64,000 nucleotides of DNA, taken from a virus (lineage: Duplodnaviria > Heunggongvirae > Uroviricota > Caudoviricetes). Position 1 is the stretch's first letter, and each line of letters starts with the position of its first letter. The notes below the pieces were generated by a model that was not told where the DNA came from, did no database searches, and worked only from the letters and a program-made list of their open reading frames with translations. Positions 9,562 to 33,349 of this stretch are shown one piece after another. The DNA lies in the IMG/VR virus record IMGVR_UViG_3300047320_000132, positions 3,101-67,100 of that record; one strand, 5' to 3'. Position numbers and translations under genes: made by a program.

Positions 9562-9834
9562 TTAAGGAGTGTCGTTCTTAAAGTACTCGGCTACTTTACG
9601 AGGAGTTGTAAGTTTGTGATGATCGCCAGGTTTGATTTTTCCAAATCTGCTTTCTATAGCCGTTACCAGTTTATTAGCCGCAATTGTTGTAGCAGCTTTG
9701 TTTTCACGATTTTTAGGGAAGAATTTATGGTCGGGCTTCATGCTTGAATCGAAGTGCTTGTGAGTCAGGTCCATAACGATTCCTAATGCACTGTCATCAG
9801 AAAGTTCGGCTATTTTTTCAAGATACTTATTCAT
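9562..9834 (-). CDS. NKYLEKIA-tagged acyl-carrier-protein-like protein
   Basis: LVTAIESRFGKIK...KLTTPRKVAEYF aligns with the ACP C-terminal half LVMALEEEFDTEI...KITTVQAAIDYI. Confidence 0.5.
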   Translation of the reverse strand: MNKYLEKIAELSDDSALGIVMDLTHKHFDSSMKPDHKFFPKNRENKAATTIAANKLVTAIESRFGKIKPGDHHKLTTPRKVAEYFKNDTP

Positions 9835-9894
9835 GGTGTTATTTTAAAAGCAAAAGCCTCCCGAAGGAGGCCTTGTATTTGAATCGTTTATACA

Positions 9895-10344
9895 TTACCA
9901 CACGGGCATGATGGCCAAATCACTTGATACATGACCCCAACCACTTTCCATGTTCAGATTAATCTTCAGCTTAGTAGCTGCTTCCATAAACTGTTGCTGA
10001 AAGTTAGCCGCCAGGCTTTGATACAACTGGGTACGTTCTTCAATAGGGATTTGTAATCCGCCATCGCTATACTCCATTGTATTACGAGCCAACAGCAAAG
10101 CTTTACCGTTGTATGCATGCCAGAGAGTTCCCCACAGAAGCACAGCTTTTGAAGGGAAGTTCTGAATACCCATATTACCCATAGGTGGGATAGAATTAAA
10201 CGAATCAGCTGCGAAGGTCATGCAAAGTTCAATGAAGGTATCCGTCATTTCCTCACCTTCAATAAGGTAATTGTTGTCAGCATAGTCTGACGTATATTCT
10301 CTCACTTCTTGTGCAGTGAGGACTTGAGGCATTGACACCGACAT
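9895..10344 (-). CDS. Putative head-tail connector/adaptor
   Basis: About 150 aa between capsid and neck genes; NTMEYSDGGLQI motif. Confidence 0.55.
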   Translation of the reverse strand: MSVSMPQVLTAQEVREYTSDYADNNYLIEGEEMTDTFIELCMTFAADSFNSIPPMGNMGIQNFPSKAVLLWGTLWHAYNGKALLLARNTMEYSDGGLQIPIEERTQLYQSLAANFQQQFMEAATKLKINLNMESGWGHVSSDLAIMPVW

Positions 10345-10348
10345 TTAA

Positions 10349-10795: not shown

Positions 10796-10824
10796 TTGTC
10801 ATTCCTTTCTTAAGAGTTTGTAGT

Positions 10825-11133
10825 TTATTGCTTATTGTACATTTTGTCAATTCTGGCCAGAATCTTATTGTTCTGATATTGCATGTATTTATGCAAGCCT
10901 AGAAGACCGCCAGTCAAAGCAACACCTCCACCAACGCCAAGTTTTACACGATTCTGAAATGTCCTGCCATTGCTGACCTTTGCCTTACGCGAGGCGCGGG
11001 TAGCCGTTAGACCTGTGACTTTAGCTTCATTAAGCACACGTGCCTTCGTAGCCCATTCTTTGGACGTTTTGCCATGTACCGAATCTAGCATGTTAATAGT
11101 CTTGGATAGGTATCTATTAAATTTACCTGCCAT
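10825..11133 (-). CDS. Small basic head protein with glycine-rich hydrophobic tail (probable start MAGKFNRYLSK)
   Basis: The 5' extension to 11304 overlaps a plus-strand promoter and gene; FNRYLSK resembles the NKYLEK tag. Confidence 0.55.
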   Translation of the reverse strand: MAGKFNRYLSKTINMLDSVHGKTSKEWATKARVLNEAKVTGLTATRASRKAKVSNGRTFQNRVKLGVGGGVALTGGLLGLHKYMQYQNNKILARIDKMYNKQ

Positions 11134-11242
11134 GTTGGTTTCCTGTAATTTACAGACGTATTTTAACAGAGAAGACGAACCAATGAAATTGGTATAAGAA
11201 GTATAGAAACACCCGTAGTCTATAACTCTTCCAGGAGAGACC

Positions 11243-11512: not shown

Positions 11513-11571
11513 GAGACCCGTCCCGGCTAGTACAGCGGGATTGCCTTTTACAAGTAAATAAGGAGAGTATT

Positions 11572-11700: not shown

Positions 11701-11710
11701 AGGAGGAGGT

Positions 11711-12004: not shown

Positions 12005-12898
12005 TTAGAAGTTTAGAACAACTGCACCGTTCACGTTACCGATACCTGCACCTACAGCTTCGTATGCGTGGAATTCGATAATGTCTGCTTCAGTCTTCAG
12101 GAAGACCGTAGGAGCTTGCAACTCATAGAACTGACCTAGGTAGTTCTGCGGAGCAAACACAAGTGCTTGGTTCGTCGGGAGGATGTTAGCCTTGTTCGTC
12201 GTGATGATCTTGTAACCGAAGAACGTATCGAGCGTACCTTCACCACGGAACAGATCCGAAGCGGCAGGCGAACCCACGTCAGTTGCGGCAAAAGTCAGCA
12301 GATCAGCATACATCGATTGCGTCATAAGGATACAACCAACCGGCAGCTTATTCAGAAGCATGAACTTAATACCAGCCATCAGGTTAGCTTTCGTGAAGCC
12401 ACCACCGATGGTGTGAACATTGCTGTTCGCCGTAGCGATTGACAGAATGTTGTTGTAAAAGTTTACGTCTTCTTGCTCTTGGATATCCTTAACGCTGTTT
12501 TCCTGCAGGATCGTGCGAATGTCGGTACGATACGTAGCGAGTTCGAACTTGCTCTTGCGGAAATCTTGCGACATGATCTTTTGGAAAGTCACCGGATAAC
12601 GTGAAGTTTTCCAATAACGAATTTCCGGACGGCCCAGGAACGGAGCAGTAGCTGCAACCGAATCCGGTTCTTTTTCAACGATAACCGTCGGTTCTTCCGT
12701 CAGTTGGCGATCCAGCTCTGAAGCTGTGATTTGAACCGGAGTAAGAATCTTACGGGTAAAGCCGTCTTCACGAAGCTTCTGACGTACGAAAGCTGACATA
12801 GCAGCTGAAGCTTCTTTAGTGTGACCTTGGTCAATCTTGTCGAGGAAAGATTGATTCAGGAATTGTACGTTTACGGTTTCTGTCGAATATGCGCTCAT
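12005..12898 (-). CDS. Major capsid protein (HK97 fold)
   Basis: 297 aa after decoration/scaffold/protease genes; LREDGFTRKIL, IRYWKTSRYPVTFQKI, EDVNF, YEAVGAGIGN pattern. Confidence 0.8.
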   Translation of the reverse strand: MSAYSTETVNVQFLNQSFLDKIDQGHTKEASAAMSAFVRQKLREDGFTRKILTPVQITASELDRQLTEEPTVIVEKEPDSVAATAPFLGRPEIRYWKTSRYPVTFQKIMSQDFRKSKFELATYRTDIRTILQENSVKDIQEQEDVNFYNNILSIATANSNVHTIGGGFTKANLMAGIKFMLLNKLPVGCILMTQSMYADLLTFAATDVGSPAASDLFRGEGTLDTFFGYKIITTNKANILPTNQALVFAPQNYLGQFYELQAPTVFLKTEADIIEFHAYEAVGAGIGNVNGAVVLNF

Positions 12899-12912
12899 TT
12901 TAATTATCCCTA

Positions 12913-13335
12913 TTACGCTACTTTGATTGTAAGGTGAGCGGTTTCCGTCGTAGCAGCAGCCACAACGTCAAGTACGAAACCAATAACCGGGTCAGTAGTA
13001 CCGTTAGCAAGTGCCAGTTGACCACTCTTCACCGTCAGCGGCGAGCCAGGAGCATAAGCACCAGCTGCATAGTTCGAAACTTTAGCCAGGAAGTTACCCC
13101 AAAGAACAACTGCCTTACCTGCATACGCTGCCGAACCACTATCACCATTACCGACGATTACCAGGCCTACATTGTTTGACGCCGACGCACCGGTTTTATT
13201 AACAGTGTTATCGCTCTGTTTGGTAACCCAGTCACCATTTTGCAGAGTAGCAGCAGCTGTAATCGGTTCGACGCGCTCTAGAGAACCATCGTACGGCCAG
13301 CCACGGATGATCTCTGCGTTACGTTCCATTAACAT
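12913..13335 (-). CDS. Capsid decoration/cement protein
   Basis: 140 aa immediately upstream of the capsid gene; beta-tulip-like YAPGSPLTVKSGQL. Confidence 0.65.
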   Translation of the reverse strand: MLMERNAEIIRGWPYDGSLERVEPITAAATLQNGDWVTKQSDNTVNKTGASASNNVGLVIVGNGDSGSAAYAGKAVVLWGNFLAKVSNYAAGAYAPGSPLTVKSGQLALANGTTDPVIGFVLDVVAAATTETAHLTIKVA

Positions 13336-13428: not shown

Positions 13429-13467
13429 ATGCGTGATAAATGTAGTGTGGGAAAAAGGATAATTTTC

Positions 13468-13926
13468 TTAGTAATAACTCTGTGAGTTATTGCTTGAAGA
13501 AACTCCTTTAACTACAGCTCCTGTCAAAGCAGCTCCCCCGAGGGCGAGACCAACTTTATTACGGGCTTTAGTCGTTTTAAGCTCAGCTTGATCGATAGCT
13601 GGTTGGAGACTGTTAGCGTGAGCCTGAAGCTTGCTAGCGCGGTTTGCATTATGGGATGCGATGTCTTGGTTCAAAGGACGGGCAGAAGCTCCGTAAACGC
13701 GTCTAGAAGCGTCACCACCCCTATTATCCGCAAGACTCTTGAATACGTTCGCCTTGGCGGTTGCTCTATCAGCTAAAGAAGCTGTTCGAGATTGCGTTGT
13801 AGAAAGACCCTTAAATTCAGCGCCTGTCGCATCTTTAAGAACACCAGGAACAGTTTTAGCTACATTTTTAGCTGCCCCGATAATCCCTGCGATACCTGCG
13901 ATCTTTTCGAGGTATTTATTCATCAT
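13468..13926 (-). CDS. NKYLEKIA-tagged internal head protein
   Basis: MMNKYLEKIAG; basic; C-terminal GLALGGAALTG. Confidence 0.7.
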   Translation of the reverse strand: MMNKYLEKIAGIAGIIGAAKNVAKTVPGVLKDATGAEFKGLSTTQSRTASLADRATAKANVFKSLADNRGGDASRRVYGASARPLNQDIASHNANRASKLQAHANSLQPAIDQAELKTTKARNKVGLALGGAALTGAVVKGVSSSNNSQSYY

Positions 13927-13927
13927 G

Positions 13928-14524
13928 TTAACTCAGCATGAATTCAAGAAGTGGGTCGGTCTTAGGACGTGCTACACCTACTCCATTACCCATACCCCAC
14001 GGTTCTTCGATAGCCGATGCAACCTTCATCAGAAGCTCAGGTGAAACGCTTTGTAGTTCAGCAAGGTCTGCTTGGGTAAACTGGGCAGCAGAAGCAATTT
14101 TGTTAAGCTGTTCAGGCATATGAGTCACAGCTTCGATATGATCGAGTTCTGACTGATGTACGGAAGCTTGTTTTTCGATATCGCCCTTAAGGCCAGCGAT
14201 TTGCGTTTCAAGAGCTTCGATGTATTCAGCAGCCTTCTGCAGGAGTTCCACAGTAGGGTTCGATTCATCTGGAAGTGCAAAGCTCGTAAGTTCGGAAATG
14301 TTGAGGTTAGCAGCCTTGACCAGTTTCACAGCGTCTTCAGGGTCAATGCCTTTCATGGTCAAAGCTGAAGCGGCTTCTTTTTCCATGATGTGCTGAGCTA
14401 CTTGATAACGTGCGTCTTTATCGCTATAGCCAGCTTGTTTAAGATGTTCTACAGCAACTGCTTCCGGGGTCGAAAGACGAACGTCTTCCGCGTGTTGCAT
14501 AAGAATTGAGGATAGTTTAGTCAT
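13928..14524 (-). CDS. Scaffold-like head protein (probable start MTKLSS)
   Basis: Coiled-coil character, five K-x-A motifs; start overlaps the upstream stop codon. Confidence 0.6.
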   Translation of the reverse strand: MTKLSSILMQHAEDVRLSTPEAVAVEHLKQAGYSDKDARYQVAQHIMEKEAASALTMKGIDPEDAVKLVKAANLNISELTSFALPDESNPTVELLQKAAEYIEALETQIAGLKGDIEKQASVHQSELDHIEAVTHMPEQLNKIASAAQFTQADLAELQSVSPELLMKVASAIEEPWGMGNGVGVARPKTDPLLEFMLS

Positions 14525-14969
14525 TTTCGTCTTCACTGTGGACTCTGCTGAATCCAGCATTTTCGAGTCGTCTATTGTAATCTTTGGTGTTAGCGATACG
14601 GGCACCGAGACCTAGTCCAAGCACTGCACCGAGAAACTTATTCTTGAAAAGCCGTGACTTTCCAATATTTGTCAGTCTTGATGCGTGAGTTGCAATGGAC
14701 GGATCCAAATGCGCATTTGCAGCGGTACTAGCCAAATAAGGAAGCATAGTTGCCTTCGTATAAAAATGGCCTGCCGTTCCGCCTAGCGTAGCTCCACCTA
14801 GAGCCCAAGCCGCAGTTTGAACCGGATGGATGCCTTCTGCATTTTCAAGTTTTGCAAACTCTTCCCGATTCAAATGGAGCTTATCGACACCATACCAACT
14901 CTTATCATCTGGGTGCGGAGCCATCGCATACGACTCAGCTACCTTCTCAAGATACTTGTTTTTCGACAT
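14517..14969 (-). CDS. NKYLEKVA-tagged head protein with glycine-zipper helices
   Basis: MSKNKYLEKVAE; ALGGATLGGTAG and LGAVLGLGLG. Confidence 0.7.
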   Translation of the reverse strand: MSKNKYLEKVAESYAMAPHPDDKSWYGVDKLHLNREEFAKLENAEGIHPVQTAAWALGGATLGGTAGHFYTKATMLPYLASTAANAHLDPSIATHASRLTNIGKSRLFKNKFLGAVLGLGLGARIANTKDYNRRLENAGFSRVHSEDEND

Positions 14970-15357
14970 GTTTGTTGATCGCTTTATTTAGTTTAACACC
15001 GGCGTAATCAGCAGCCAAACTTGTAGCGCCAGTCAATGCCAAAAGTTTTGCATTATGCATATGTCCTGCACCTTCCCCTATAATTTTGGGAGAGAGTTTT
15101 TGCACTCCAAAACCTGTACCTGCACCGATACCTCCGATTATTCCAGTATCAATAGCGTCGTGTTTCCAATTAGATTCCTGTTCTTGAGCAGCTTTATGTA
15201 ATGCTGCGCTAAGAAGAGTTTTATCCCCGCGAACTAATTTTGAACCTGGTGAAACAACTTTAGATGGTTTCGCAACTTTGCCAAGTCTTGCGCCGACTCC
15301 CTTGGATGCCAAATTCGGAAAAGTCATTCCTGCAATTTTTTCCAAATACTTATTCAA
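14947..15357 (-). CDS. NKYLEKIA-tagged head protein with glycine-zipper helices
   Basis: TTG start with ggag SD; GIIGGIGAGTGFG. Confidence 0.7.
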   Translation of the reverse strand: MNKYLEKIAGMTFPNLASKGVGARLGKVAKPSKVVSPGSKLVRGDKTLLSAALHKAAQEQESNWKHDAIDTGIIGGIGAGTGFGVQKLSPKIIGEGAGHMHNAKLLALTGATSLAADYAGVKLNKAINKHVEKQVS

Positions 15358-15431: not shown

Positions 15432-16691
15432 TTAATAGCCGTACAGTTCGTTCGATTTAGCGTTAACCATTTCGATTGCGCTGTCGAAATCAACGCCGTT
15501 AGCGATGAGCATATCGAGAGCAGCCTTCTTTTCACGGCCAACAGCGTATGCACCAGCAGCACCGGCAGCAGCAGCGCCAGCACCCAGATGAACAGCCTTG
15601 TTGTTAGCCAGAGCCTTGAACGAGCCTTGGGTAGCTTGGGCCTTAACGCGGTTAGCGTCAAACGCTACGCCATTAGCAGTCTTCTTAGCAGCACGGCCTA
15701 CATGTTCAGCAGTCGTTGCAGCCTTACGGGCAGCACGAGTTGCTGCACCACCACCGACCGAACGTGCAGCTTCGTTAAGCATCTTTGCAGCGCCAGAAGC
15801 AGCAGCAACCTTCGTAAGCTCAACAGCTTGGTCGAAATCAAAACCAGCAGCTAGGAACGAGTCAAAAGCGGCTTGCTTGACTTGCGTTTCTTCTTCTTGT
15901 TCGAGTTCAAACGCAGCTTCTTTAACCAGGTTCACAGCGGCGTCGAAGTCGAAGCCTTGGCTAACGAGTTCAGAAACAGCTGCAGCCTTTTCTTGTTGGT
16001 CAGCATCGACCCAACCCGTAACACCACCTTGGTTAGGAGTCTGAGCAGCAACTTGTGCGCCTTCTTCCTTAGCAATGCCAGCAGCGGGGTTTTGATCAAC
16101 CGGAGCAGCACCATGAGCCATAGCATCTGAAACGATTGCATCGAAAATTTGGTTGATAGTACCACCATTACCACGACCATCCGTACCCGGTTGGTTTTGG
16201 ATAATGCTATCTTGTTCTGCTACTTGAGCAGCCAGGTCTACCTGGGTCTTGTTCGGAACACCACTGGCAATGCCATTCATGGTGTTTTGGTCACCGACTG
16301 AAGCCAGCTTCTCAAGAAGAGCTTCGGCCAGAGCCTTACCTGCGTCAGCAGCTTGTTTGTTCATAGTATCCTCTGTATTAACTTGATCAAGTTTAATGGA
16401 TGCAACTTTTTGCATTACTTCTTTAGCCAAGGCGGCACCTTTTGCAGCTGCTTCCTTAGTTTGTTCGTCGTCTTTCTTCTTGTCGTCTTTTTGTTCGACG
16501 GCATTTTCTTTCTTAGCAGCTTGGTCGGCTTTGCAAGCAGTATCTAGTTCTTCATCTGCTTTACAAACTGCCGTCTCGGCTTTTTCTTCATCTTTCTTTT
16601 CATCCTTCTCTGACTTTTCGCTGGCGGACTTAGTAAGACCGGCGCTTTTTTCAAGATCCTGGATGAGATCATCAAGACTTAGATTCATCAT
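15432..16691 (-). CDS. Major scaffolding/core protein
   Basis: Charged coiled coils, about 11 K-x-A motifs, repeated GFDFDxA(V/I) units; lies between protease and capsid genes. Confidence 0.65.
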   Translation of the reverse strand: MMNLSLDDLIQDLEKSAGLTKSASEKSEKDEKKDEEKAETAVCKADEELDTACKADQAAKKENAVEQKDDKKKDDEQTKEAAAKGAALAKEVMQKVASIKLDQVNTEDTMNKQAADAGKALAEALLEKLASVGDQNTMNGIASGVPNKTQVDLAAQVAEQDSIIQNQPGTDGRGNGGTINQIFDAIVSDAMAHGAAPVDQNPAAGIAKEEGAQVAAQTPNQGGVTGWVDADQQEKAAAVSELVSQGFDFDAAVNLVKEAAFELEQEEETQVKQAAFDSFLAAGFDFDQAVELTKVAAASGAAKMLNEAARSVGGGAATRAARKAATTAEHVGRAAKKTANGVAFDANRVKAQATQGSFKALANNKAVHLGAGAAAAGAAGAYAVGREKKAALDMLIANGVDFDSAIEMVNAKSNELYGY

Positions 16692-16753: not shown

Positions 16754-18259
16754 CTATTTATTCTGAATCAACTTTAGCATTGCCGACTTGGCTAATTTGT
16801 AAGTCAATTTGTAGTCAGAAGCAGATTTAACTAAAGGTATTTTAACACCATCTGAAAGCTTGTTCAATTCCTGCTCTTTCATTTTCTTCTCAATTACTTG
16901 AGTAATGAACCACTTTGCAGCGAGAGCAGCACCGCCGATTGCTACGATGGCATTGAACACACGCAAGAGTTCAGACTTTTGTGGAGCGTTAGCCAGATTC
17001 TGTTCTCTGAACCTTTCATAAACCGTCGGTTCGATATGATGACCATTTCCGCTGTACCCTACGTTTGTACCTTGCATATATCCATACATCGATGCTTGCT
17101 TATTCATAGCTACACGGCTTTCTACATAATCCGGCAGATACGAAGAATCTTCCATGTGTGGAAGAAGCGCATGCACAATTCCTATATTAGGTTCTGTAAT
17201 TTCACCGAAGTCACGATCAAAGTCCATCAGTGCAGAAGTACCTGATTTATTCACATAAGCAGCAGCCATAGGGCCGATGCCCTTAGCTTCGTCACCGAGG
17301 ATCTTGCGACCAATCAGTTCTGCCAGAAAACCCAATGAAGGGCTAATACCAAGATGACCCAAGGTGCTAAGAACTTCATTAAGCTTATAGTTTCTAAGAA
17401 CGTCGATAACGTCACCTTTCGGATCAGAAACTCGTGATACAAGATTATCAAAACTAGGATCAGCAGATACAACATCACCATCGACCTCTTTTAGTAATTC
17501 TGATAGCTTCTTTAACGACGCGGCTTTGTGCATCGTAATTTCAGATAGGCCAGCCATCATGGCTTCATCTACAGAACCAACAACTTCAGCTGTTGATGCA
17601 ACTTTCTGTAGAACAGAACTCGTTACGTCGGCAGGGCGGAATACGATAGAGATATCGAAGAATCTAAGCGGAGCCAGATTCAACGCCATAACCTTGCGGC
17701 CATCTGGATAAATTCTGCCAAGCTGTTCGCTCAAGTGTTCACAATACTCTTCACGAGTCTTAGCCTTGTTACTGCAAATACTGCAAACGTCGAATGGAGT
17801 ACGGCAAGCCATAGAAGTCTTAGGCCAATCACCGCTTTCGATCTTGTCGACGATGTCAGGGGCCTTGTCATTCCACAGTTCGGCAATAAGCTCAACACGA
17901 TGCATTCTATCGTTATAAACGGAATAGATAACACGCCCGATAGCAATTTCAGGGTTCTTGTTTACGTGGTTGCGGAAGATATGGGCGGGTGAAGTCTCAA
18001 AGGTATTGTGATAATCAATGAGATTCGATTCAGGGAAATAGTCTGCGTTACGGTTGGCACCATAGAATTCACCCGCGCCCATAGCGAGGATGTGCAGATA
18101 TGTCTTTCCATGAATAGGAGTGATTTTGGATGCGAATTGTTGAATACGAGAATCCGCAGCCTGTTTGATGAGACTGCCTGTAAGGTCTCTGTTGTCAAGA
18201 ATCGTAACCTGGGGTTCGTCTTGGTAAAAAGAAGAGGTATCGATCAGTTTTGTTAGCAT
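16754..18259 (-). CDS. Prohead maturation protease (HK97/assemblin fold) with C-terminal extension
   Basis: RNHVNK (His), KTSMAC (Ser), DISIVFRPAD; CSIC...C...H Zn motif; synteny. Confidence 0.75.
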   Translation of the reverse strand: MLTKLIDTSSFYQDEPQVTILDNRDLTGSLIKQAADSRIQQFASKITPIHGKTYLHILAMGAGEFYGANRNADYFPESNLIDYHNTFETSPAHIFRNHVNKNPEIAIGRVIYSVYNDRMHRVELIAELWNDKAPDIVDKIESGDWPKTSMACRTPFDVCSICSNKAKTREEYCEHLSEQLGRIYPDGRKVMALNLAPLRFFDISIVFRPADVTSSVLQKVASTAEVVGSVDEAMMAGLSEITMHKAASLKKLSELLKEVDGDVVSADPSFDNLVSRVSDPKGDVIDVLRNYKLNEVLSTLGHLGISPSLGFLAELIGRKILGDEAKGIGPMAAAYVNKSGTSALMDFDRDFGEITEPNIGIVHALLPHMEDSSYLPDYVESRVAMNKQASMYGYMQGTNVGYSGNGHHIEPTVYERFREQNLANAPQKSELLRVFNAIVAIGGAALAAKWFITQVIEKKMKEQELNKLSDGVKIPLVKSASDYKLTYKLAKSAMLKLIQNK

Positions 18260-18285: not shown

Positions 18286-18606
18286 TTAAATACGAATGTA
18301 TTTATTTTTGGTACCAGCAGCTTTCTCTTGTTCGGGCAACTTAACGTGAACATTAACGCTCTGTCGTTTCTTCAAAGCCTCTGCGATATCTTTCAATTGA
18401 TCTAAAGATTTACTTTCCACATCCGCCATGTGATTTCCTCGATGTTTGCTCTCTATACCATTGGCTAGATTCGCAACACCTAGCCCAAGACCGGTAGCAG
18501 ACATACCTAGACCAATCTTGGAGGTTGTTGAACTTCTCTTCCAGCCTTTAGCGAAGCTCTTTCCGAACTCACTTAGACTGGCAATTTTCTCTAGGTATTT
18601 ATTCAT
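18286..18606 (-). CDS. NKYLEKIA-tagged head protein
   Basis: MNKYLEKIAS; IGLGMSATGLGLGV. Confidence 0.7.
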   Translation of the reverse strand: MNKYLEKIASLSEFGKSFAKGWKRSSTTSKIGLGMSATGLGLGVANLANGIESKHRGNHMADVESKSLDQLKDIAEALKKRQSVNVHVKLPEQEKAAGTKNKYIRI

Positions 18607-20276: not shown

Positions 20277-20438
20277 TTATCCCTTGCGACCTTTTTTGGT
20301 CCCTTTAGTCATGTCTATTTTAGTCTTGAGACTCATGAAAGGCTTACTCTTTGGAGCCTTAAGGGGCTTCTGACCAGCTCTTACCTGAAGCTGGCCTCCT
20401 TTCTTTCTAGCAGCGATTTTCTCTAGGTATTTATTCAT
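20277..20438 (-). CDS. 53-aa highly basic NKYLEKIA-tagged peptide
   Basis: Manual translation MNKYLEKIAARKKGGQLQVRAGQKPLKAPKSKPFMSLKTKIDMTKGTKKGRKG; ATGA overlap with the upstream HNH gene; below the ORF-track cutoff. Confidence 0.75.
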   Translation of the reverse strand: MNKYLEKIAARKKGGQLQVRAGQKPLKAPKSKPFMSLKTKIDMTKGTKKGRKG

Positions 20439-20962
20439 AAAAGCTCTTCAATGAGTCTGTTCTTTTTCTGCATGTTTTCTTTTGCAGGGATAACACGTAG
20501 ATTGGTATGAACATGGAGCCCTGAAACCGTTTTACCTCTAAGCGGAACTATATGATCAACGTGGTGAGGTATGCCTGTTTTTTCACTAAGTTCTATACTC
20601 AATGCGTAAATTTCTCGTATCTTTTCAATATCTGCCCAAGGAGGGGTTCTATCCTTTATAAACTGTTTACGTCTCTTAGAGTATTCTTTAAAGTAGGCTT
20701 TATTATCATGATAATAATCTCGCCCTTTCTTCAAAACCTTCTCTTTGTTTCTATTTGCGTACCGGATTGCCCACTCACACGCTTTTGTAGGATTAGCCGT
20801 ATGAAATTTATCATTCGCAATTTTTCCGCATTCAAGACAAGTTCCCTTAGCTACATATCTTTCAGAAACATGCCCATTTTTGCAAGGCTTACCTGTGTAA
20901 TATTTAGTAAGCCCTTCCTCTTTAGCTTTCTTCCGAGTTATCAGGCTCATCTTCACTATCAT
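20435..20962 (-). CDS. Free-standing HNH endonuclease
   Basis: HHVDHIVPLRGKTVSGLHVHTNL; N-terminal YYTGKPCKNGH. Confidence 0.85.
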   Translation of the reverse strand: MIVKMSLITRKKAKEEGLTKYYTGKPCKNGHVSERYVAKGTCLECGKIANDKFHTANPTKACEWAIRYANRNKEKVLKKGRDYYHDNKAYFKEYSKRRKQFIKDRTPPWADIEKIREIYALSIELSEKTGIPHHVDHIVPLRGKTVSGLHVHTNLRVIPAKENMQKKNRLIEELL

Positions 20963-23689: not shown

Positions 23690-24472
23690 TTAGCACCCAG
23701 GCGGATGCTGATTGTCGCCAGAAGCTATTGTAATAGCACCTGTACTTGTTGATCCTGGATTTGATACCACAACGCCACCTGATCCATTAGCCTTATTAAA
23801 GGCATCACCATAATAAATACTGGCTACATAGGTAGATGTCAAACTCCCATTGCCTCTATCTGTAGTAGCAAGTCCGATATACGCCTGAAACGTTGCTTCC
23901 ATGCGACTATTATACGTGAACTGCCCGATACTGAATTGATTTCCTGACTGTTTCACCGCTTTATACTTGGATTCCAGAACGACCAGACCAGCAAGGATCT
24001 GGTTTGAAACTGTAGCTGAGCCGTTGAACTTTACAGAAAGGCTTTCGCCTGGATTCACACACAGCACGGATACAAGGTCAGGCCTTGCTGTTTCAATAAG
24101 GCACTTACCCGTTTTCTGGGATGCGCCCTTAACCTGGTTCCAACCCATCGTTTGAAGAAGACCCCATGCTCTAAGACCTTGATCGACATTGACGGATTGT
24201 TGGCTGATACCCCTACCGATAATAGTTTGAACTGCGCTAGAGTTCATATAGTCTCTAGCACCTGACGAATTGATAACACTCAAGGCTGGACCTTGAGCAT
24301 TAACGTTGAAGTGACTTTCGTATTGGATTTGAGCCAATATCAGTTTAACGATGTCGGTCTCTTTCCCCAGTGTGTTCGCAAAATATTGGCTAAGGAGTTG
24401 AGAGATCGTAGTAGAGCAAATCTGTTTAATAGAGTTGTCTACTACTGGACCTGTAACTGCACCACTTGCCAT
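23690..24472 (-). CDS. Lytic transglycosylase/lysozyme-like (virion-associated) protein
   Basis: AQIQYESHFN (catalytic Glu) and AWGLLQTMG. Confidence 0.7.
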   Translation of the reverse strand: MASGAVTGPVVDNSIKQICSTTISQLLSQYFANTLGKETDIVKLILAQIQYESHFNVNAQGPALSVINSSGARDYMNSSAVQTIIGRGISQQSVNVDQGLRAWGLLQTMGWNQVKGASQKTGKCLIETARPDLVSVLCVNPGESLSVKFNGSATVSNQILAGLVVLESKYKAVKQSGNQFSIGQFTYNSRMEATFQAYIGLATTDRGNGSLTSTYVASIYYGDAFNKANGSGGVVVSNPGSTSTGAITIASGDNQHPPGC

Positions 24473-26310
24473 TAGTACTGTCCTCCTTCACCTTCGCCAA
24501 ATTCATTACCGATAATGTACGGAGTAATAGGCTCAGTGCTATGAAGATCAGACTCTGCACCAACTGCAGCGCTTTCACGAAGCGTATTCTTAAGACCGGA
24601 GAACGACAGTTTCGAAACCCAGTTATCGTCAAGCAATTTTGCAGTCTTAAGACCGGGAACGATAGGGATTACTTTCAGTCCGGTCGATGCTACTGGAACC
24701 TTTGTGACACCACGTTCACGCAATTCCTGGATGTGGTTACCGTCAAGCAGCGTACCTGCTGTAAGCTCATGCACGCCTTTGGCCAGAAGCTTACCTTCTG
24801 CGTTTTCGAGAGGCACGTCACCATGTGTATCAGAGAAATATTTACGAACCGTGTTTACATCAATCTTTTGACCGGGTAGGAAGCCAGTTTCACCTGGATC
24901 TACGACTTCAACGTGCTTGACCAGATTCTTTGCGATCATTTCAAAGTGACGAGGATCTAGATCTGAACCGTAAATACCACGAAGTTCATGACTCATATAA
25001 AGTCTTCCTGCTCCAAGGCCTTTAAGACCTACGAGCTTACGGGGATTGACAACGCCAGTAGAAAGCGAATCGCCTTTCAGAACCTTATCACCTACTGAAA
25101 CTTTTAGGTTTTGGATGCGCGGAACGAAATGGGACTGTTCATTAACAAATACCTGATGGTCACCAAGAGGAGTTTGCTTGATTAAAGAGACAGTTCCGTT
25201 AATACCCGAAATAGTAGCTTCGTCCTTGAAGTTTTCAGCCGGATTGCGCAGAAGATTAGAAGCCTGTTCATACGAATTGCCTTTACGAGCGCCTACCGAT
25301 GCTTTGTGCTTAGTTGCAAGCATAGACTGCGTAAGAACTTCTGACACAGATTGTGCTGCGATAACGCCGACGTTTTCGCCAATTTCAGCAGGTTTTCCAT
25401 TCCCCATAAGACCGTAGCATTTCTTGCAAACGCCTTGATGAGCTTCGCAGGTAAGAACACTACGAACCTTTATGCTCTTGGCTCCAGAGGCAACCTTTTC
25501 TTTGTAGTAAGCTTCGTCGATAAGCGTGTTAGTGCCAGCTTCATATCTACCGATAGCACCTTTTTTGTCGGATATCGGAAGAAGAATGCCATTGGTGGTT
25601 CCGCAATCATCAATAGTGATAACTTCGTGGAATACAGTTGGGGACAGTTCCTTAAATAGAGCGCCCGGTAGAGCCGTTGATAGTTGAGACAGAACCGTAG
25701 ATCCACGTCCCATGTACGACATCGCTATCAGTTCAGCTGGAGTCATACCTTGGGCAAAAGAATGCTTAATAACGAACGGTACTAGTTCGCCCTTCAAGTT
25801 AATCGACATAAGAGGCGTTGAAGTACCAGTTGCAAGCTGAGTAGGATTACCACGAGCACCCGTCTTGGCCATCTTTGCCGCAGTAGAGCCTCGTGACATA
25901 AGGTAGTCTATGTTCTGTTTTTCAATCTTCCCATTGTACTCTCCGGTTAGATTGCCAAGAGCTTCATTTTCTTCTTTTTTGGCTAGTTTCCTGGAGAAAA
26001 TCTGATCAACCTTTGTCTGAAATTCATCGATAATTGCCTGACGTTCATCAGATTCGTTGATGTAGTCAGTCAGAGGCGTGGTTGCACCAATCTCAGTAGC
26101 CTTGTTGAAGAACTTTTTACCAAGATCATTTATGGATTCGTGGGAATCAGGGCCGCCATGTTGCAATAGAAGATTCACAAGATCACTGATACCCCGTTTG
26201 TCAAGGGGTTTATATAGATCGAAGTGTTCTCTGGCTTCAGGCGTAGGCAACTCACTTTTCAGTTTGATAGCCCCAGGTGTAGTATATTTTTCAGTCATAG
26301 TGGTTGGCAA
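24472..26310 (-). CDS. rpoC: RNA polymerase beta-prime C-terminal part (bridge helix, Zn site, trigger loop)
   Basis: GARGN, SFAQGMT, DDCGT, RSVLTC...GVCKKCYG, GENVGVIAAQSVSEVLTQ. Confidence 0.9.
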   Translation of the reverse strand: MPTTMTEKYTTPGAIKLKSELPTPEAREHFDLYKPLDKRGISDLVNLLLQHGGPDSHESINDLGKKFFNKATEIGATTPLTDYINESDERQAIIDEFQTKVDQIFSRKLAKKEENEALGNLTGEYNGKIEKQNIDYLMSRGSTAAKMAKTGARGNPTQLATGTSTPLMSINLKGELVPFVIKHSFAQGMTPAELIAMSYMGRGSTVLSQLSTALPGALFKELSPTVFHEVITIDDCGTTNGILLPISDKKGAIGRYEAGTNTLIDEAYYKEKVASGAKSIKVRSVLTCEAHQGVCKKCYGLMGNGKPAEIGENVGVIAAQSVSEVLTQSMLATKHKASVGARKGNSYEQASNLLRNPAENFKDEATISGINGTVSLIKQTPLGDHQVFVNEQSHFVPRIQNLKVSVGDKVLKGDSLSTGVVNPRKLVGLKGLGAGRLYMSHELRGIYGSDLDPRHFEMIAKNLVKHVEVVDPGETGFLPGQKIDVNTVRKYFSDTHGDVPLENAEGKLLAKGVHELTAGTLLDGNHIQELRERGVTKVPVASTGLKVIPIVPGLKTAKLLDDNWVSKLSFSGLKNTLRESAAVGAESDLHSTEPITPYIIGNEFGEGEGGQY

Positions 26311-26332: not shown

Positions 26333-26815
26333 TTACGGCATGTCAGGCCAGTATCTGTTGTTCTTGATAACGTTGACAGATTTAGACAATATAGTTAAGT
26401 TCTGTTCACAATGTAGGCCGCATACCAATTTTGACTGTAAGGGTACGATGTGATCTACTTGCCAAAATTCCCCAGACAGTTTAGACCACGTTTTTGCACG
26501 AAGGTAGTAATCCTCAACTACTTTGGTATTTATCCATTTGGGAGTTGCTTTTTTATGAACAGCTCGTCTTTTAGCGTTAGCTGCAGCAAATTTTTCAGGA
26601 TGCGCCTTTCTGTACTTTAAACTCTGAAGCCTATCTGAGAGAATTCTCAATTCTAAATTGTTAAGCCTGTATTTTTTGCTGTATGCCGCAGATTTATCTT
26701 TTCTAATTTCTTTCAAACAAATTTTGCAATAATACTCATAGCCGTCTTTTTGGGCTTTATTTTTGTTGAACGATTCAAAAGGCTTGCTTTCTTTGCATTT
26801 GGAACATATCTTCAT
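26333..26815 (-). CDS. Free-standing HNH endonuclease
   Basis: CSKC...CKIC; VDHIVPLQSKLVCGLHCEQNL. Confidence 0.85.
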   Translation of the reverse strand: MKICSKCKESKPFESFNKNKAQKDGYEYYCKICLKEIRKDKSAAYSKKYRLNNLELRILSDRLQSLKYRKAHPEKFAAANAKRRAVHKKATPKWINTKVVEDYYLRAKTWSKLSGEFWQVDHIVPLQSKLVCGLHCEQNLTILSKSVNVIKNNRYWPDMP

Positions 26816-28919: not shown

Positions 28920-30188
28920 ATGTTACAACCCAATGATGAATTCCTTTTCACCCGGCAACGTCACGAAGCTGATGTAATGGGCCTTCACTACGATCTCCGA
29001 CTAGTTCATGGAGATAAGGCGTACTCCTTCGCAACGCTCAAAGACATGCCTGGTCCAGGTGAAATCATTGCAGTCTACGAACAACCTGTTCATGACAGAG
29101 CGTATGCGCTAAGCAAGAAAGTGGTTATCCCTACTGGCCAATACGGTGCAGGTGTTACTCATTTAGATTGGGTTAGAAAAGCAATCGTAGCTCCACACAG
29201 TACAGAAACCTCGCTGGTTATATTCACCAAAGATGGTCAGAAGTTCCTGCTTAAGAAATCTCCGACTAAAGAAAATGAAAAATCGTGGATTTTCAGGAAC
29301 ATTACGGGAATGGGTAAAAGTCAGAACCCTTACCTTAAGAAAATAGAAGAAGGTATGGATAAACAAGCATCGTTTATCGGCGGTGCAATCGCTACTCACT
29401 TACTTCAAAATGTAGCTACGAATGTGGCTTTGGGAAAACGTCGTGTGTCACGCTATCTGGCCAATTCGTTTGCCCAAGGCGCTCACGGTGTCGTAGATAA
29501 TAGCATCAAGGCAAGAGCGCTGCGTACTGCACTTGGCGCAACCCTGCCGGATATCTCAGTGGCTCATAAGTCGATGCATGACTTAGGTCGTGCTGTAGGT
29601 GGACTTACTGCCCATGCAACTCCTCGCCAACGCGTAGCTGTTAGGATGCTTACGCAAGGTCGCTTCAACGATCTAAAAAAATACGATTTGCATAGAGACC
29701 CTGTAGTACAAGCAGTTCATAATCATGTCAGCAAACATCTCGGTCTGCCTTCGCTTGACCATGTTATGAGTAAAGCCGATGACGTGGCTAAGTTATGGAA
29801 AGATAAAACTCATCCGTTGCTTTCCAATATTGCAACCAATATTACGAAAGGTGCAAAACCACAGGGCAAGCATTTTGTACCGGGGCATCTTACTGCCAAA
29901 CCAGGTTTGACGGGCGCAGTTGCAAGCTTTGCTATCGATCCCGCTGCGGGTAGTTTAAACACAGCCAAAAATCTTATGGCTAGTAAAAAAGTGGCGAATA
30001 ACAAGTACGGTAAGAAAGTGGTTGATATGTTGAATAATCAATTTATCAAGAAACCGATTAAAGCTGGAGTGGAATCTGAAGGTCGTATTTCACAGCTAAA
30101 AAATAAGGCGTACAAGTTAGGGGTTAACCCTCTTTCAGCTCATCTAAAAAGAACATCGTCGGCGTTAACCGATGTTCTCAAGGATTAA
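28920..30188 (+). CDS. LigD-type 3'-phosphoesterase domain fused to a basic head-protein-like domain
   Basis: QRHEA..GLHYDLRL, VHDRAY, IPTGQYGAG; linker NPYLKKIEEGMDKQAS. Confidence 0.8.
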   Translation: MLQPNDEFLFTRQRHEADVMGLHYDLRLVHGDKAYSFATLKDMPGPGEIIAVYEQPVHDRAYALSKKVVIPTGQYGAGVTHLDWVRKAIVAPHSTETSLVIFTKDGQKFLLKKSPTKENEKSWIFRNITGMGKSQNPYLKKIEEGMDKQASFIGGAIATHLLQNVATNVALGKRRVSRYLANSFAQGAHGVVDNSIKARALRTALGATLPDISVAHKSMHDLGRAVGGLTAHATPRQRVAVRMLTQGRFNDLKKYDLHRDPVVQAVHNHVSKHLGLPSLDHVMSKADDVAKLWKDKTHPLLSNIATNITKGAKPQGKHFVPGHLTAKPGLTGAVASFAIDPAAGSLNTAKNLMASKKVANNKYGKKVVDMLNNQFIKKPIKAGVESEGRISQLKNKAYKLGVNPLSAHLKRTSSALTDVLKD

Positions 30189-30319
30189 TTCCAGCATATT
30201 AATACCAATATAGCAATCGTTATTATTACATCTATAGGATGATGTAATAGAATTTGAAGTAGTGACATGATAACCTCCAGGTTTAGTACATTACTTATAC
30301 CAATTTAGCACATAGGCAA

Positions 30320-31777
30320 ATGAATAAGTATCTAGAAAAAATAGCCCGGAAGCAGAAAAGCGATCTTCGTCCAAATCAGATTGACGCACTTGAGCATCTT
30401 GAAAAAGAGAAAGGTGTTGTCCTTCATCATAGCCTTGGTAGTGGCAAGACAAAAACGTTCCTTAAAGCGGTGGAACATTACCAGAACGAAAATCCGAAGA
30501 AACGAGCATTGGTTATCGCCCCGGCGAGCCTTGTTACTAACGTTGACAAGGAATTGCTCAAGCACAAGATCAACCTTGACAAGAATAGGCTTGACGTCAT
30601 GAGCTACGAGAAGGCAGTAAACGAAGCTCATAATCTTCGCAAGAACGATTATTCGATCGTAGTTGCCGACGAGGCTCACAGACTTCGCAATACGAATACT
30701 AAACGTACCAAAGAGCTTCGTGACATTATCAGCGGAGCGGATCGACGTCTTCTAGCTACCGCTACGGGTAACTACAATAAGCTGTCTGATATTTCAGCGC
30801 TCGTTAACATCGCTGCTAATGACGATGTTCTTCCTGAAGATTCTAAGAAGATGGAAGAGCGTTACACTAAGGACGAAATTGTCAAGCCTGGGTTTAAAGA
30901 ACGGCTTCTTGGTGCTAAACCTGAAGCTGTTAAAACACTTGACCGTCGTAAGGAACTTAAAGAAGCGCTTCAGCGGTATGTGAGCTATTACGATAGCAAG
31001 GATGATCCTGAAGCCAAAGATCATTTCCCTTCCAAGACTGAAAAGAACGTGGATGTAGAAATGTCCCCGGAACAGTTGAAGTATTACAAGTTTACTGAAG
31101 GTAAGATTCCGTTCCTGCTCAGAATGAAGATTCGTCACAACCTTCCGTTGGACAAGAAAGAGAAGTCGAGTCTCAATGCTTTCTCGACAGGCGTGAGACA
31201 GGTTTCCAACGGCTACAAGCACCTCAAGGCTGATGGCAAGGGTGAGTACTCACCTAAGATCCAAAAGGCCGTAGCGAGCCTCCAGGACGGTCTGAAGACG
31301 GATAAGAACTTCAAGGCTCTCGTATATTCAAACTATCTTGATGCGGGTCTGAAGGATTACTCTAAACGACTGCAGGAACTGAAAATTGACCATGCTATTT
31401 ACGACGGCTCCCTTTCACGTAAAGAAAAGGATGAATTGGTTAAACAGTACAACTCTGGTAAGAAGAAAATTTTGTTGATTTCTTCATCTGGTTCAGAAGG
31501 ACTTGACAGTAAAGGCACCAAGCGTGTACAAATTCTTGAGCCTCACTTTAACAAGAGCAAAATCAATCAAGTAGTTGGCCGTGCGGTTCGGTTCGGAAGC
31601 CATGACCATTTACCCAAAGAAGAACGCAAAGTAGAAGTTGAGCATTTTCACAGCGTACATCCTAAGCCGCTTTGGGGTAAGACGCCGTACAGTATCGACA
31701 AGTATCTGTCAGAGAATTCTGATACGAAGCAGGACCTGTTTGACGAAGTTAAAGATTTGATGAAGAAAGATGACTAA
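30320..31777 (+). CDS. SNF2-family helicase/ATPase, NKYLEKIA-tagged
   Basis: HSLGSGKT, DEAH, SGSEGLD, QVVGRAVRFGSH. Confidence 0.9.
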   Translation: MNKYLEKIARKQKSDLRPNQIDALEHLEKEKGVVLHHSLGSGKTKTFLKAVEHYQNENPKKRALVIAPASLVTNVDKELLKHKINLDKNRLDVMSYEKAVNEAHNLRKNDYSIVVADEAHRLRNTNTKRTKELRDIISGADRRLLATATGNYNKLSDISALVNIAANDDVLPEDSKKMEERYTKDEIVKPGFKERLLGAKPEAVKTLDRRKELKEALQRYVSYYDSKDDPEAKDHFPSKTEKNVDVEMSPEQLKYYKFTEGKIPFLLRMKIRHNLPLDKKEKSSLNAFSTGVRQVSNGYKHLKADGKGEYSPKIQKAVASLQDGLKTDKNFKALVYSNYLDAGLKDYSKRLQELKIDHAIYDGSLSRKEKDELVKQYNSGKKKILLISSSGSEGLDSKGTKRVQILEPHFNKSKINQVVGRAVRFGSHDHLPKEERKVEVEHFHSVHPKPLWGKTPYSIDKYLSENSDTKQDLFDEVKDLMKKDD

Positions 31778-31988
31778 TAAATACCTAACCAAAATTGCTT
31801 CTGACCTAGCTACGGCAGAGAAGAACGAAAAAGACGAAAACGATGATGTAAACAAGTATTCGGAAGAATTGAAGAAAGCCAGAAATCCGAAACTCGTCGC
31901 AGCGTTGAAGTTTGCGTTACCAGAAGAAAAACAACACAGGGCTAAATTTGAGGCTGCTGTTGCAGCTATCAAACAAAGAGATCACTGA
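31770..31988 (+). CDS. Half-ferritin (encapsulated-ferritin EncFtn-like), NKYLTKIA-tagged
   Basis: E-x6-Y-x9-P-x-L-x-A-x-L-x5-EEKQH matches EncFtn ferroxidase spacing without gaps. Confidence 0.7.
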   Translation: MTNKYLTKIASDLATAEKNEKDENDDVNKYSEELKKARNPKLVAALKFALPEEKQHRAKFEAAVAAIKQRDH

Positions 31989-33349
31989 TGAACAAGTACC
32001 TAGAAAAAGTAGCAACCGAACTTAAGGAACCAGCTAGCCCTGAGGGGCTTGGCTTTGACTTGTCTAAGGGCGATGAAAAGGAACTGTATAAATGGCTTAC
32101 AGCGGTGACTCTTTTTTCTAGACCTATTCAGCGTTCTGTAGCAGGTATGGCTGCAAAACATATGGCAGAACAGGGGTTCCACTCACCTGAAGCTGTTGAA
32201 TCAGCTGGTTGGGAAAATCTTCGTGACAACCTGGTCAAAGGACATTATGGCCGATTTGATGAATCCACAGCTACGACGATGCTTGCACAAGCAAGGCATC
32301 TAAAAGAGAAATACGGAACGATTGGTAATCTTATCGATAGCCGTACGCCTGAAGAGATTCGTGCTGAAATTCAAACGTTCCGTGGAATCGGTCCACTTGG
32401 AAGTCAGCTATTTGTCGAAGGTGTCAATCCGTATCTGGGTCAAATTCAAAAGCAAGCCTCTGCTGAAAACTATCAACGTCACAAATACGTTGAAGGTGAT
32501 TGGACTAAGCTTGAGCATCCAGTTGCATCAAAGAAATGGGACGGCGCTCACTTTATTTTGACAGTTCAGCCTGACGCTTCTCTTACGTTTCACTCACGTA
32601 GAGAGAGCGTTAAAGGCGGATACCCGGAGCGTTCTTCACAATTGCCTCACCTTGCAAAGCAGATGCCTGACTATATCGGTAATCAATTTGCAGTAGAACT
32701 TGTGCATACCGGACTTGCTAAATCCGAAACGGAATCACATCCGACGGTTTCAGGTATTCTGAATTCGCTTGCACCTCGTGCAATTGCAACTCAAGCTGAG
32801 AAGGGTCCAGTTAGAGCCGTGCTTATCGATGTCAAGAATCCCGATCTTGCTACATACAAGGATAAGATTGAGTACATCAAGAAATTCGAAAAGGATTTTG
32901 GAAATAACGAAGTGATGTTTGCACCTCACCTTGAACATGGCGTTGAGAATATCAACAAGTACCTCGACAAGATTAAAGGGGATAAAGGTGAAGGCTTGAT
33001 TGTTGCTGACTACGAACAACCAGAAACAGAATCAGTACGATACAAAGTTAAAAACTATGTGACATATAATCTGAGAGCACAGGGTCAGCAGCAGGAAATC
33101 GACATTAAGGGAAATCCTAAAGATAGTATGGGAGCTTTGTATCTATACGATGCTTCAGGAAAAATGGTTGGAAAGGTTGGAACGGGGTTTGATAGAGAAA
33201 CACGAATCAATGCACGCAAGCATCCAGAGATGTTTGATGGAAAATTGATCCAGGTTAGAGCGTATCCGCCAAGCGTACCGGGAGGCCAGATAAGATTCCC
33301 GGTCTATAACGGATTTGCTGATGGGGAAATTGACCGAGTCCATCTTTGA
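31988..33349 (+). CDS. lig: HhH-domain protein fused to ATP-dependent DNA ligase, NKYLEKVA-tagged
   Basis: HhH-like FRGIGPLG and YGRFDE; ligase KWDG, GEGLIV, YKVK, GKVGTGF. Confidence 0.88.
   Translation: MNKYLEKVATELKEPASPEGLGFDLSKGDEKELYKWLTAVTLFSRPIQRSVAGMAAKHMAEQGFHSPEAVESAGWENLRDNLVKGHYGRFDESTATTMLAQARHLKEKYGTIGNLIDSRTPEEIRAEIQTFRGIGPLGSQLFVEGVNPYLGQIQKQASAENYQRHKYVEGDWTKLEHPVASKKWDGAHFILTVQPDASLTFHSRRESVKGGYPERSSQLPHLAKQMPDYIGNQFAVELVHTGLAKSETESHPTVSGILNSLAPRAIATQAEKGPVRAVLIDVKNPDLATYKDKIEYIKKFEKDFGNNEVMFAPHLEHGVENINKYLDKIKGDKGEGLIVADYEQPETESVRYKVKNYVTYNLRAQGQQQEIDIKGNPKDSMGALYLYDASGKMVGKVGTGFDRETRINARKHPEMFDGKLIQVRAYPPSVPGGQIRFPVYNGFADGEIDRVHL

Follow-up and report, generated by a model that had tools for sequence, protein, structure and literature searches.

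An eight-residue peptide shared by unrelated proteins of an uncultured myophage resembles a capsid-targeting propeptide

INTRODUCTION

Bacteriophage T4 carries a capsid-targeting sequence (CTS) on its IPI, IPII and IPIII internal proteins and on Alt (Mullaney and Black 1996; PMC9026906, PMC8442874). In T4, gp21 removes the peptide MKTYQEFIAE once it has guided the internal proteins to the scaffolding core (PMC8442874); its residues 4 and 7 serve targeting, and residues 8 and 10 serve processing (PMC9026906). Here, we analyse a comparable peptide, NKYLEKIA, in a stretch of 64,000 nucleotides of tailed-phage DNA (Caudoviricetes; positions 3,101 to 67,100 of IMG/VR record IMGVR_UViG_3300047320_000132), hereafter called the window. 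The peptide, which we call the tag, opens a series of unrelated proteins encoded mainly among head genes, and in the form MNKYLEKIA it is identical to the T4 CTS at five of nine positions (M1, Y4, E6, I8 and A9). The source phage, of 130-180 kb, belongs to a large, uncultured clade of myophages of roughly 130-190 kb that package a virion RNA polymerase. At 45-55% protein identity, Salmonella phage Arash and the Vibrio phages D181, D148 and D69 are its nearest named relatives.

In phiKZ/SPN3US-type giant phages, a gp21-like protease processes internal and ejection proteins and sometimes also subunits of the virion RNA polymerase, and the SPN3US paralogues gp53 and gp54 share identical N-termini (PMC5694885). 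The propeptides of these phages are mostly at least 100 residues long, are cut after the Glu of (A/S/G)-x-E and are common to paralogues only, whereas the window tag comprises 8 residues and is distributed over dozens of unrelated families. Among the herpesviruses, the release and maturation sites of pseudorabies virus pUL26, YLQA-T and VQA-S, are located after the protease domain and near the C-terminus, respectively, and both are cut after Ala (PMC4498786).

RESULTS

The tag is conserved at the protein level on unrelated proteins

A six-frame motif scan of the window located M(x)NKYL(E/T)K(I/V)A at the N-termini of nine open reading frames (ORFs), six on the minus strand and three on the plus strand, and a degenerate copy on a tenth (Table 1). 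The initial annotation, which had been made from the DNA letters alone, had reported the shared start on at least nine proteins, and the scan bears this out. The ORFs that it named are right; the numbers by which it placed them are their low ends, so that the minus-strand N-termini lie at the high ends instead. The tag takes the form MNKYLEKIA in five proteins, one of which has a TTG start, and the forms MMNKYLEKIA, MSKNKYLEKVA, MTNKYLTKIA and MNKYLEKVA in one protein each. Both variants that had been listed are also present, namely FNRYLSK in ORF 10825-11133 and an internal NPYLKKIE, at 29325 in ORF 28920-30188. The sequence FNRYLSKTI is N-terminal provided that ORF 10825-11133 starts at 11133; homologues of this ORF open with the canonical MNKYLEKIAS in two related loci (L077 and L078) and with MAG(A/S)FN(K/R)YLSKTL in three others (L062, L063 and L067).

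The conserved entity is the peptide and not the DNA that encodes it. A degenerate DNA pattern for NKYLEK[IV]A matches eight times in the window, compared with zero matches in 100 dinucleotide shuffles. Codons vary at every degenerate position between the copies, and the 45 nucleotides upstream of the copies are unrelated. When the window and related loci are taken together, 80 contexts encode NKYLEKIA with 72 different 24-mers, and all six Leu codons are used. Because the codons vary freely, the upstream DNA is unrelated and shuffling yields no matches, selection acts on the peptide itself, in agreement with the initial annotation, which had already noted the differing codons. Beyond the 9.5-33.4-kb part of the window, no further copy was found in the 131.1-kb single-contig record (72% complete according to CheckV).

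The proteins behind the tag are basic in nine of ten cases (isoelectric point (pI) 8.8-11) and differ in their domains. The SNF2 helicase and ATP-dependent ligase assignments of the initial annotation hold, and the glycine-rich segments and the basic 53-residue peptide are visible. Its ferritin label, by comparison, is based on a sub-threshold Rubrerythrin match (E 5.7e-4), and its 'ACP-like' label found no support. The family of ORF 14947-15357 is present in 20 tagged head loci, homologues of the 53-residue peptide (20277-20438) occur in L009, L016 and L032, and Vibrio phage D181 encodes a basic protein resembling this peptide that starts with MDNVDTLLEKIAAKSKK. The ligase also contains NKYLDKIK at 32954-32977, inside its catalytic domain. 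The ligase homologues of L010 and L040 retain this segment, which is probably part of the fold, with a chance likeness to the tag.

The tag recurs in relatives with a homologous head protease

When 2.9 million IMG/VR contigs were scanned with the degenerate tag pattern, exact matches appeared in 55 loci on 31 contigs, corresponding to 73 tagged ORF starts in addition to those of the window. The proteins behind these tags range from 50 to 633 residues and were grouped by BLASTP into 26 families, including helicases, ligases, basic peptides and glycine-zipper proteins. The motif search that had been suggested as a check thus shows that the tag recurs on many kinds of cargo and is portable over at least 26 families. 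A homologue of the window head protease (16754-18259) is encoded on 26 of the 31 tag-bearing contigs, the other five being a 4.6-kb piece and four records that are 27-41% complete.

Protease homologues are common in metagenomes (more than 875), and the tag is restricted to one clade of them. In 80 head loci fetched around protease homologues, one sub-clade carries 2-7 tagged ORFs per locus, and the tag was found neither in the more distant of these loci nor in Arash, for which a 4-mer test also detected no shared tag. The phage collection that we searched contains no tagged cultured phage, and a full-text literature search for NKYLEKIA gave no paper.

A relaxed scan with the pattern N-x-Y-L-x-K collected 156 distinct N-terminal instances, whose consensus is N-K-Y-L-E-K-I-A. 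Numbered from Asn, K2 is kept in 79%, E5 in 78%, I7 in 74% and A8 in 90% of the instances. The gap between Met and Asn is 0-5 residues, and conservation ends at Ala.

Family presence and absence in 46 head loci, analysed for a tag receptor specific to the tagged clade, yielded only cargo families and an SLT-like protein. The latter, a 260-residue protein encoded at 23690-24472 on the minus strand, has an ES...GLLQ pattern that recalls lytic transglycosylases. Twenty-four of 27 tagged head loci encode a member of its family, compared with none of 19 untagged loci, and the gene of the window protein fills the slot of the Arash helicase gene.

One tagged cargo family of the relatives (L016:138-917, L032:7623-8402, L030:2678-3343 and L046:1446-2111) keeps a YHGT motif. 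It has a sub-threshold match to Tpt1/KptA and Atlas matches of low TM score to Scabin, DarT and enterotoxin-type ADP-ribosyltransferases. As a lead, these likenesses hint that the family could be a counterpart of T4 Alt. The predicted structure of the L016 member (260 residues) was unusable (predicted local distance difference test (pLDDT) 36).

Internal copies mark fusion junctions

The tag had been described as an N-terminal element. It is indeed shared at protein starts, but it is not strictly N-terminal, given that it is also found within fusion proteins and behind pro-regions. In L025, a LigD-phosphoesterase, the sequence NVYLEKIA and an SNF2 helicase follow one another in a single 651-residue ORF, and in L012 a LigD-phosphoesterase is joined to a ferritin-like domain via an internal NKYLKKIAS (264-residue stop-to-stop frame). 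Proteins with two or three tags occur in L057, L077 and L046, and in five loci (L072-L075 and L080) the family of ORF 18286-18606 has a pro-region of 55-75 residues ahead of the tag. In the window, ORF 28920-30188 matches the Arash virion protein gp100 from residue 146 to the C-terminus; gp100 itself starts with MEKQAS, and MDKQAS precedes the corresponding domain in the window. Fusion and fission at the tag are expected of a cut site, and a free N-terminus is evidently not required. The presence of the tag inside fusions and after pro-regions therefore suggests that it functions as a linear site for recognition and cutting.

The LigD-type 3'-phosphoesterase domain never carries the tag at its N-terminus. 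It always lies upstream of a tag-like junction that is followed by a helicase, ferritin-like or gp100-like domain, and the phosphoesterase may ride into the head on the tag of its partner.

A wider motif of head proteins includes the second half of the tag

The second half of the tag, L-E-K-I-A-(S/G/A), is one case of the motif [LIVMF]-x-K-x-A-[SAG]. The genome contains 44 copies of this motif, of which 31 lie between 13.4 and 33.4 kb; within-protein shuffles predict 13 for the genome. A set of 15 head or virion proteins contains 26 copies versus 2.9 expected (approximately 9-fold; maximum 12 in 2000 shuffles). The scaffold-like protein 15432-16691 has 7 copies (0.54 expected, P 0.0005), protein 13928-14605 has 4 (0.15 expected), the protease has 5 and protein 19174-20274 has 4. 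An unbiased tally around each K-x-A in 951 proteins of 37 head loci, from which the first 12 residues were excluded, revealed preferences at -2 for M (5.6-fold) or L (3.3-fold), at -1 for E, at +1 for Q and at +3 for S. The N-K-Y half of the tag is missing from the general motif and from the copies in the scaffold proteins.

The motif is likewise enriched in Arash (41 copies versus 18 expected), where it is concentrated in gp220-gp225 and gp242. Three Arash ORFs start with the short form M-x-K-x-A-S: the virion RNA polymerase beta subunit (MPKSAS), gp100 and a further ORF (MMEKVAS). The window ligase contains the motif as IQKQAS (32444-32461), just inside the start of the ligase domain match (residues 146-445).

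The head protease has a gp21/assemblin fold and carries the motif around its catalytic domain

An AlphaFold2 model of protease residues 1-240 (pLDDT 79.7) matched T4 gp21 best (Z 11.4 over 133 residues, root-mean-square deviation 2.7 Å). Herpes assemblins aligned with the model at Z 8-10 over approximately 120 residues (VIA-align), and the top Foldseek hits were all herpes proteases (best E 2e-4). On the basis of this model, the window protease has the gp21/assemblin fold. Single-sequence and profile searches of Pfam (including S77), NCBIfam and PDB chains gave no match for the protease.

The five motif copies of the protease are located at residues 30-35 (LIKQAA), 217-222 (LQKVAS), 243-248, 385-390 and 476-481 (LVKSAS). 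Across 25 aligned homologues, with identities down to 47%, K32/A34 and K219/A221 are invariant and flank the catalytic domain, and L476/K478, approximately 20 residues before the C-terminus, are also invariant. Because the invariant copies flank the catalytic domain and a further copy lies near the C-terminus, as in the release and maturation layout of the herpes enzymes, we read the motif as a protease site. H56, H98, S149 and H175 are invariant in the same homologues, from which a candidate Ser-His-His triad of H56, S149 and H175 can be guessed. The spacing from Ser to His is approximately 25 residues in the human cytomegalovirus enzyme and 26 residues in the window protease. A complex prediction for protease residues 36-225 with the tagged 53-residue peptide had a median score of 0.36, compared with 0.61 for an unrelated control, and was used neither for nor against binding. 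A literature search for cleavage data on related proteases (phage G and cluster C mycobacteriophages) gave nothing useful.

Protease residues 222-501 (16754-17596) include a conserved hydrophobic helix, GGAALAAKW, in which A445, K449 and W450 are invariant. After LVKSAS, the protein ends in a conserved amphipathic tail of approximately 20 residues that resembles the capsid-binding tail of herpes scaffold proteins.

A tagged-helicase orthologue is found in Arash virions

The helicase is the only tagged protein with an orthologue in a virion whose proteins have been measured. This orthologue, Arash Gp217, was detected in virions with 38 unique peptides and 1148 spectra, a level similar to that of the capsid protein (1333 spectra) and the RNA polymerase beta' subunit (1210), and is thus a major component there (PMC10585845). 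Arash gp217 is untagged; the alignment begins with residue 16 of the window helicase opposite residue 6 of gp217.

Tagged genes are interleaved with a conserved head module

The window, Arash and the Vibrio phages share one gene order over the stretch that runs from RNA polymerase beta' to the capsid gene. Six of the nine tagged genes, together with the degenerate tenth, lie among the genes for the capsid, decoration, scaffold-like and protease proteins (Table 1), which agrees with the earlier statement that most copies reside in the head operon. Among the tagged genes, only the helicase gene has a match in Arash, and the tagged genes therefore look like lineage-specific insertions in the conserved head module.

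Table 1. Tag copies and neighbouring features of the window (coordinates in window numbering; on the minus strand, the protein N-terminus lies at the higher coordinate)
Feature	Position	Strand	Remarks
Tag MNKYLEKIA	9808..9834	-	ORF 9562-9834, 90 residues, pI 9.4, family none; equally tagged homologues in L006, L019, L043
Degenerate tag MAGKFNRYLSKTI	11095..11133	-	Probable start of ORF 10825-11133, 102 residues, pI 10.8
Major capsid protein, HK97-type	12005-12898	-	phrog_2522 major head protein; 55% identity to Arash gp226
Decoration-like protein	12913-13335	-	phrog_766 head decoration
Tag MMNKYLEKIA	13897..13926	-	ORF 13468-13926, 152 residues, Gly/Ala-rich, pI 10.2
Head protein, 225 residues	13928..14605	-	4 motif copies; weak match to Arash gp225
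Tag MSKNKYLEKVA	14937..14969	-	ORF 14517-14969, 150 residues, glycine-zipper-like segments
Tag NKYLEKIA (TTG start)	15331..15357	-	ORF 14947-15357, 136 residues, pI 10.0
Scaffold-like acidic/Ala-rich protein, 419 residues	15432..16691	-	7 motif copies; weak match to Arash gp223
Prohead protease with scaffold-like tail, 501 residues	16754..18259	-	phrog_18299 head maturation protease
Tag MNKYLEKIA	18580..18606	-	ORF 18286-18606, 106 residues, glycine zipper; directly upstream of protease gene
Two head proteins, 179 and 366 residues	18609..20274	-	2 and 4 motif copies; orthologues of Arash structural gp221 and gp220
Tag MNKYLEKIA	20412..20438	-	ORF 20277-20438, 53 residues, 32% K+R, pI 11.0; basic internal-protein-like peptide
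Virion protein, 651 residues	21657..23612	-	Arash gp218 orthologue; 2 motif copies including MEKIAA at residue 148
Multisubunit RNA polymerase pieces	24472-26310, 34319-35482, 38442-41819		
Internal tag-like NPYLKKIEEGMDKQAS	29325..29372	+	ORF 28920-30188, between LigD-phosphoesterase domain and C-terminal domain
Tag MNKYLEKIA	30320..30346	+	SNF2-type helicase 30320-31777, 485 residues; helicase domain from approximately residue 11-15
Tag MTNKYLTKIA	31770..31799	+	ORF 31770-31988, 72 residues; weak Rubrerythrin/ferritin-like match
Tag MNKYLEKVA	31988..32014	+	ATP-dependent DNA ligase 31988-33349, 453 residues
Portal protein	42103-44001		

The virion RNA polymerase beta subunit is encoded by one 1525-residue gene in Arash (gp206) and is split in the window into genes for 1125 and 387 residues. 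The two genes (34319-35482 and 38442-41819, minus strand) are approximately 3 kb apart, and five other ORFs (35501-38438) lie between them. The run of head and RNA polymerase genes is interrupted by two paralogues of endonuclease VII/HNH-like type (20435-20962 and 26333-26815, minus strand; phrog_1035 and phrog_26577), which probably encode homing endonucleases; D181 carries homing endonucleases at similar positions.

The sequence TTATACCAA occurs 28 times in the 131-kb record, 27 times on the minus strand, where its plus-strand reading is TTGGTATAA. Its window copies are located at 1604, 3648, 11197, 26845, 27590, 33367, 44098, 44175, 44664, 50120 and onward. The window copies of TTGGTATAA that were checked lie approximately 45-65 nucleotides upstream of plus-strand ORF starts, and given this position the sequence looks like an extended -10-type promoter for plus-strand genes. 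The lone plus-strand copy of TTATACCAA, at 30287-30295, is located approximately 20 nucleotides upstream of the tagged helicase start and points away from it.

DISCUSSION

The tag probably combines a targeting signal with a protease site

What is the biological function of a peptide that unrelated phage proteins have in common? We propose, with a probability of roughly 0.65, that NKYLEKIA is a propeptide like the T4 CTS, in which N-K-Y targets the protein and L-E-K-I-A constitutes a protease site that is probably cut after Ala, as in the herpesviruses. In such a mechanism, the clade-wide motif [L/M]-[E]-K-x-A-[S/A/G] would be the recognition site of the gp21/assemblin-fold prohead protease, with cleavage most likely after Ala, and N-K-Y would be an extra handle that gives foreign proteins an affinity for the assembling head core. 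The tagged proteins would be synthesized late, enter the core during shell formation and be clipped when the protease fires, and the clipped cargo would stay in the head and be delivered with the DNA. The cargo would comprise basic peptides, glycine-zipper proteins, an SNF2 helicase, a DNA ligase and a ferritin-like protein, and in relatives possibly an ADP-ribosyltransferase. The initial annotation had likewise suggested a portable prohead tag of the T4 type that is removed by the prohead protease, and gene context, the modelled protease fold, motif placement and Arash Gp217 lend this suggestion indirect support.

Several observations weigh against our proposal. The helicase and ligase genes are on the strand opposite to the head genes, and the virion RNA polymerase subunits of the window have no tag. 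The Arash helicase is found in virions without a tag, so the tag cannot be the sole route into the head, and the Arash virion list itself (116 proteins, metabolic enzymes included) is probably contaminated or inflated. At the level of sequence, the searches described above found no link of the protease to gp21 or the assemblins, and the members of its candidate triad are predicted from residue invariance. Furthermore, the residue after Ala is S, A or G in 46% of the 156 instances and E, K and L are also seen, which is looser than the herpes rule of cleavage between Ala and Ser.

The peptide might be nothing other than the best substrate of the prohead protease, that is, a propeptide or polyprotein separator on cargo that arrives by binding DNA, RNA polymerase or scaffold, with no targeting involved. 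The internal copies at fusion junctions and after pro-regions, the identity of the tag core with the general motif of the scaffold proteins and the packaging of the untagged Arash helicase would all suit a bare cut site. However, N, K and Y are almost invariant across the 156 instances although they lie outside the general motif, and small unrelated proteins have just this peptide in common. Such conservation of N-K-Y implies selection beyond the cut site, and we thus keep a targeting role and regard mere cleavage as unlikely. We consider it quite unlikely that the peptide stays on the mature protein, either to dock it at the shell, portal or scaffold or to order its exit through the tail. A retained signal would accommodate the variable position after Ala and a possible short amphipathic helix with Y4, L5, I8 and A9 predicted on one face, but the position of the motif on both sides of the catalytic domain and its 4-7 copies in scaffold-like proteins fit cleavage better, and the fusion junctions point to separation.

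Many of the cargoes have glycine-zipper, membrane-like segments, as might be anticipated if the tag served another machine, such as a modifying enzyme, a chaperone, a membrane-insertion route or import into a phage compartment. Yet the tag lacks a hydrophobic core and shares its motif with the scaffold proteins and the protease, no radical S-adenosylmethionine gene was found in the 131-kb record (72% complete) and, among enzyme families, only the SLT-like protein is specific to tagged head loci; we judge this explanation very unlikely. We give almost no credence to an element that acts on RNA or translation, such as a start context or downstream box, or to inheritance by gene duplication. The tag does stand at start codons with no clear Shine-Dalgarno sequence visible upstream, but the codons vary at every degenerate position, internal copies are in frame and the cargo families are unrelated.

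Comparison with known capsid-loading and maturation systems

The proposed CTS-like propeptide shares with its T4 counterpart a short N-terminal peptide on unrelated, mostly basic proteins, an encoded protease of the gp21 fold as judged by modelling and a cargo set that varies among relatives. The layout is also two-part in both, with targeting residues first and the protease site last. The T4 analogy drawn in the initial annotation therefore stands in its two-part logic; the cut, however, is likely to fall after Ala in the herpes-like manner and not after Glu. The (L/I)-x-E rule of T4 is not followed, since position 10 is S, A, E, G, K or L (Glu in 25 of 156 instances) and the tag ends in K-x-A followed by a small residue. 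The window phage further differs from T4 in belonging to an Arash-like clade with a virion RNA polymerase and a protease without sequence similarity to gp21. In addition, the tag is used at internal fusion sites, its cargo includes a helicase, a ligase and a phosphoesterase, and it is known here from sequence alone.

The likeness to the herpes assemblins lies in the modelled fold, in the fusion of the protease to a scaffold-like C-terminal region and in hydrophobic-x-(K)-x-A-S motifs right after the catalytic domain and approximately 20 residues from the C-terminus, with Ala as the likely P1 and Ser as the likely P1' residue. In contrast to the herpes sites, the window motif has an invariant Lys two residues before Ala, and the herpes site is not known as a portable cargo tag.

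Encapsulins also use a short portable peptide to guide unrelated cargo into an HK97-fold shell, and a ferritin-like cargo is found among the tagged proteins. This second analogy of the initial annotation is weaker: encapsulin peptides usually lie at the C-terminus, bind the shell protein itself and are retained, whereas the window tag is N-terminal or junctional and resembles a protease motif. An encapsulin cargo-loading peptide, which is rarely N-terminal and belongs to a shell devoid of portal and tail, was rejected as a candidate because the tag is N-terminal or internal and the genome has a portal, a tail, a protease and terminase-type relatives. A Sec or Tat signal peptide, in which a positively charged n-region precedes a hydrophobic core of 7 to 15 residues and a signal peptidase site, was also ruled out, given that the conserved part comprises 8 residues with three charged positions and that nothing is conserved beyond it.

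Implications for head loading and delivery

The principle of a targeting propeptide is known from T4 and, in a longer form, from phiKZ/SPN3US. Different in the present case are the clade, the tag sequence, the probable cut after Ala, the use at junctions and the DNA-repair-type cargo. To our knowledge, DNA-repair enzymes have not previously been described as capsid cargo. Taken to its full extent, the proposal can be formulated as a single loading system, which we advance tentatively and regard as rather doubtful as a whole. The protease would cut [L/M]-E-K-x-A-S between Ala and Ser in the herpes-like manner, and its cleft, held in the core by the scaffold tail, would itself be the tag receptor, such that eight residues would load any protein. 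An end-repair kit of 3'-phosphoesterase, SNF2 translocase, ligase and ferritin-like protein would then be delivered with the genome, together with membrane-active and host-modifying proteins.

If the CTS-like function of the tag is correct, the eight residues would provide a compact handle for loading phage heads with proteins in laboratory systems. The tag would also constitute a second independent case, besides T4, of an address combined with a cut site, here with a herpes-like cut, and would thus bear on the shared ancestry of head maturation in phages and herpesviruses. DNA-repair enzymes would be capsid cargo, a hint that the incoming genome has to be sealed or protected. Moreover, the injected cargo of a large and common clade of uncultured phages would become readable from sequence.

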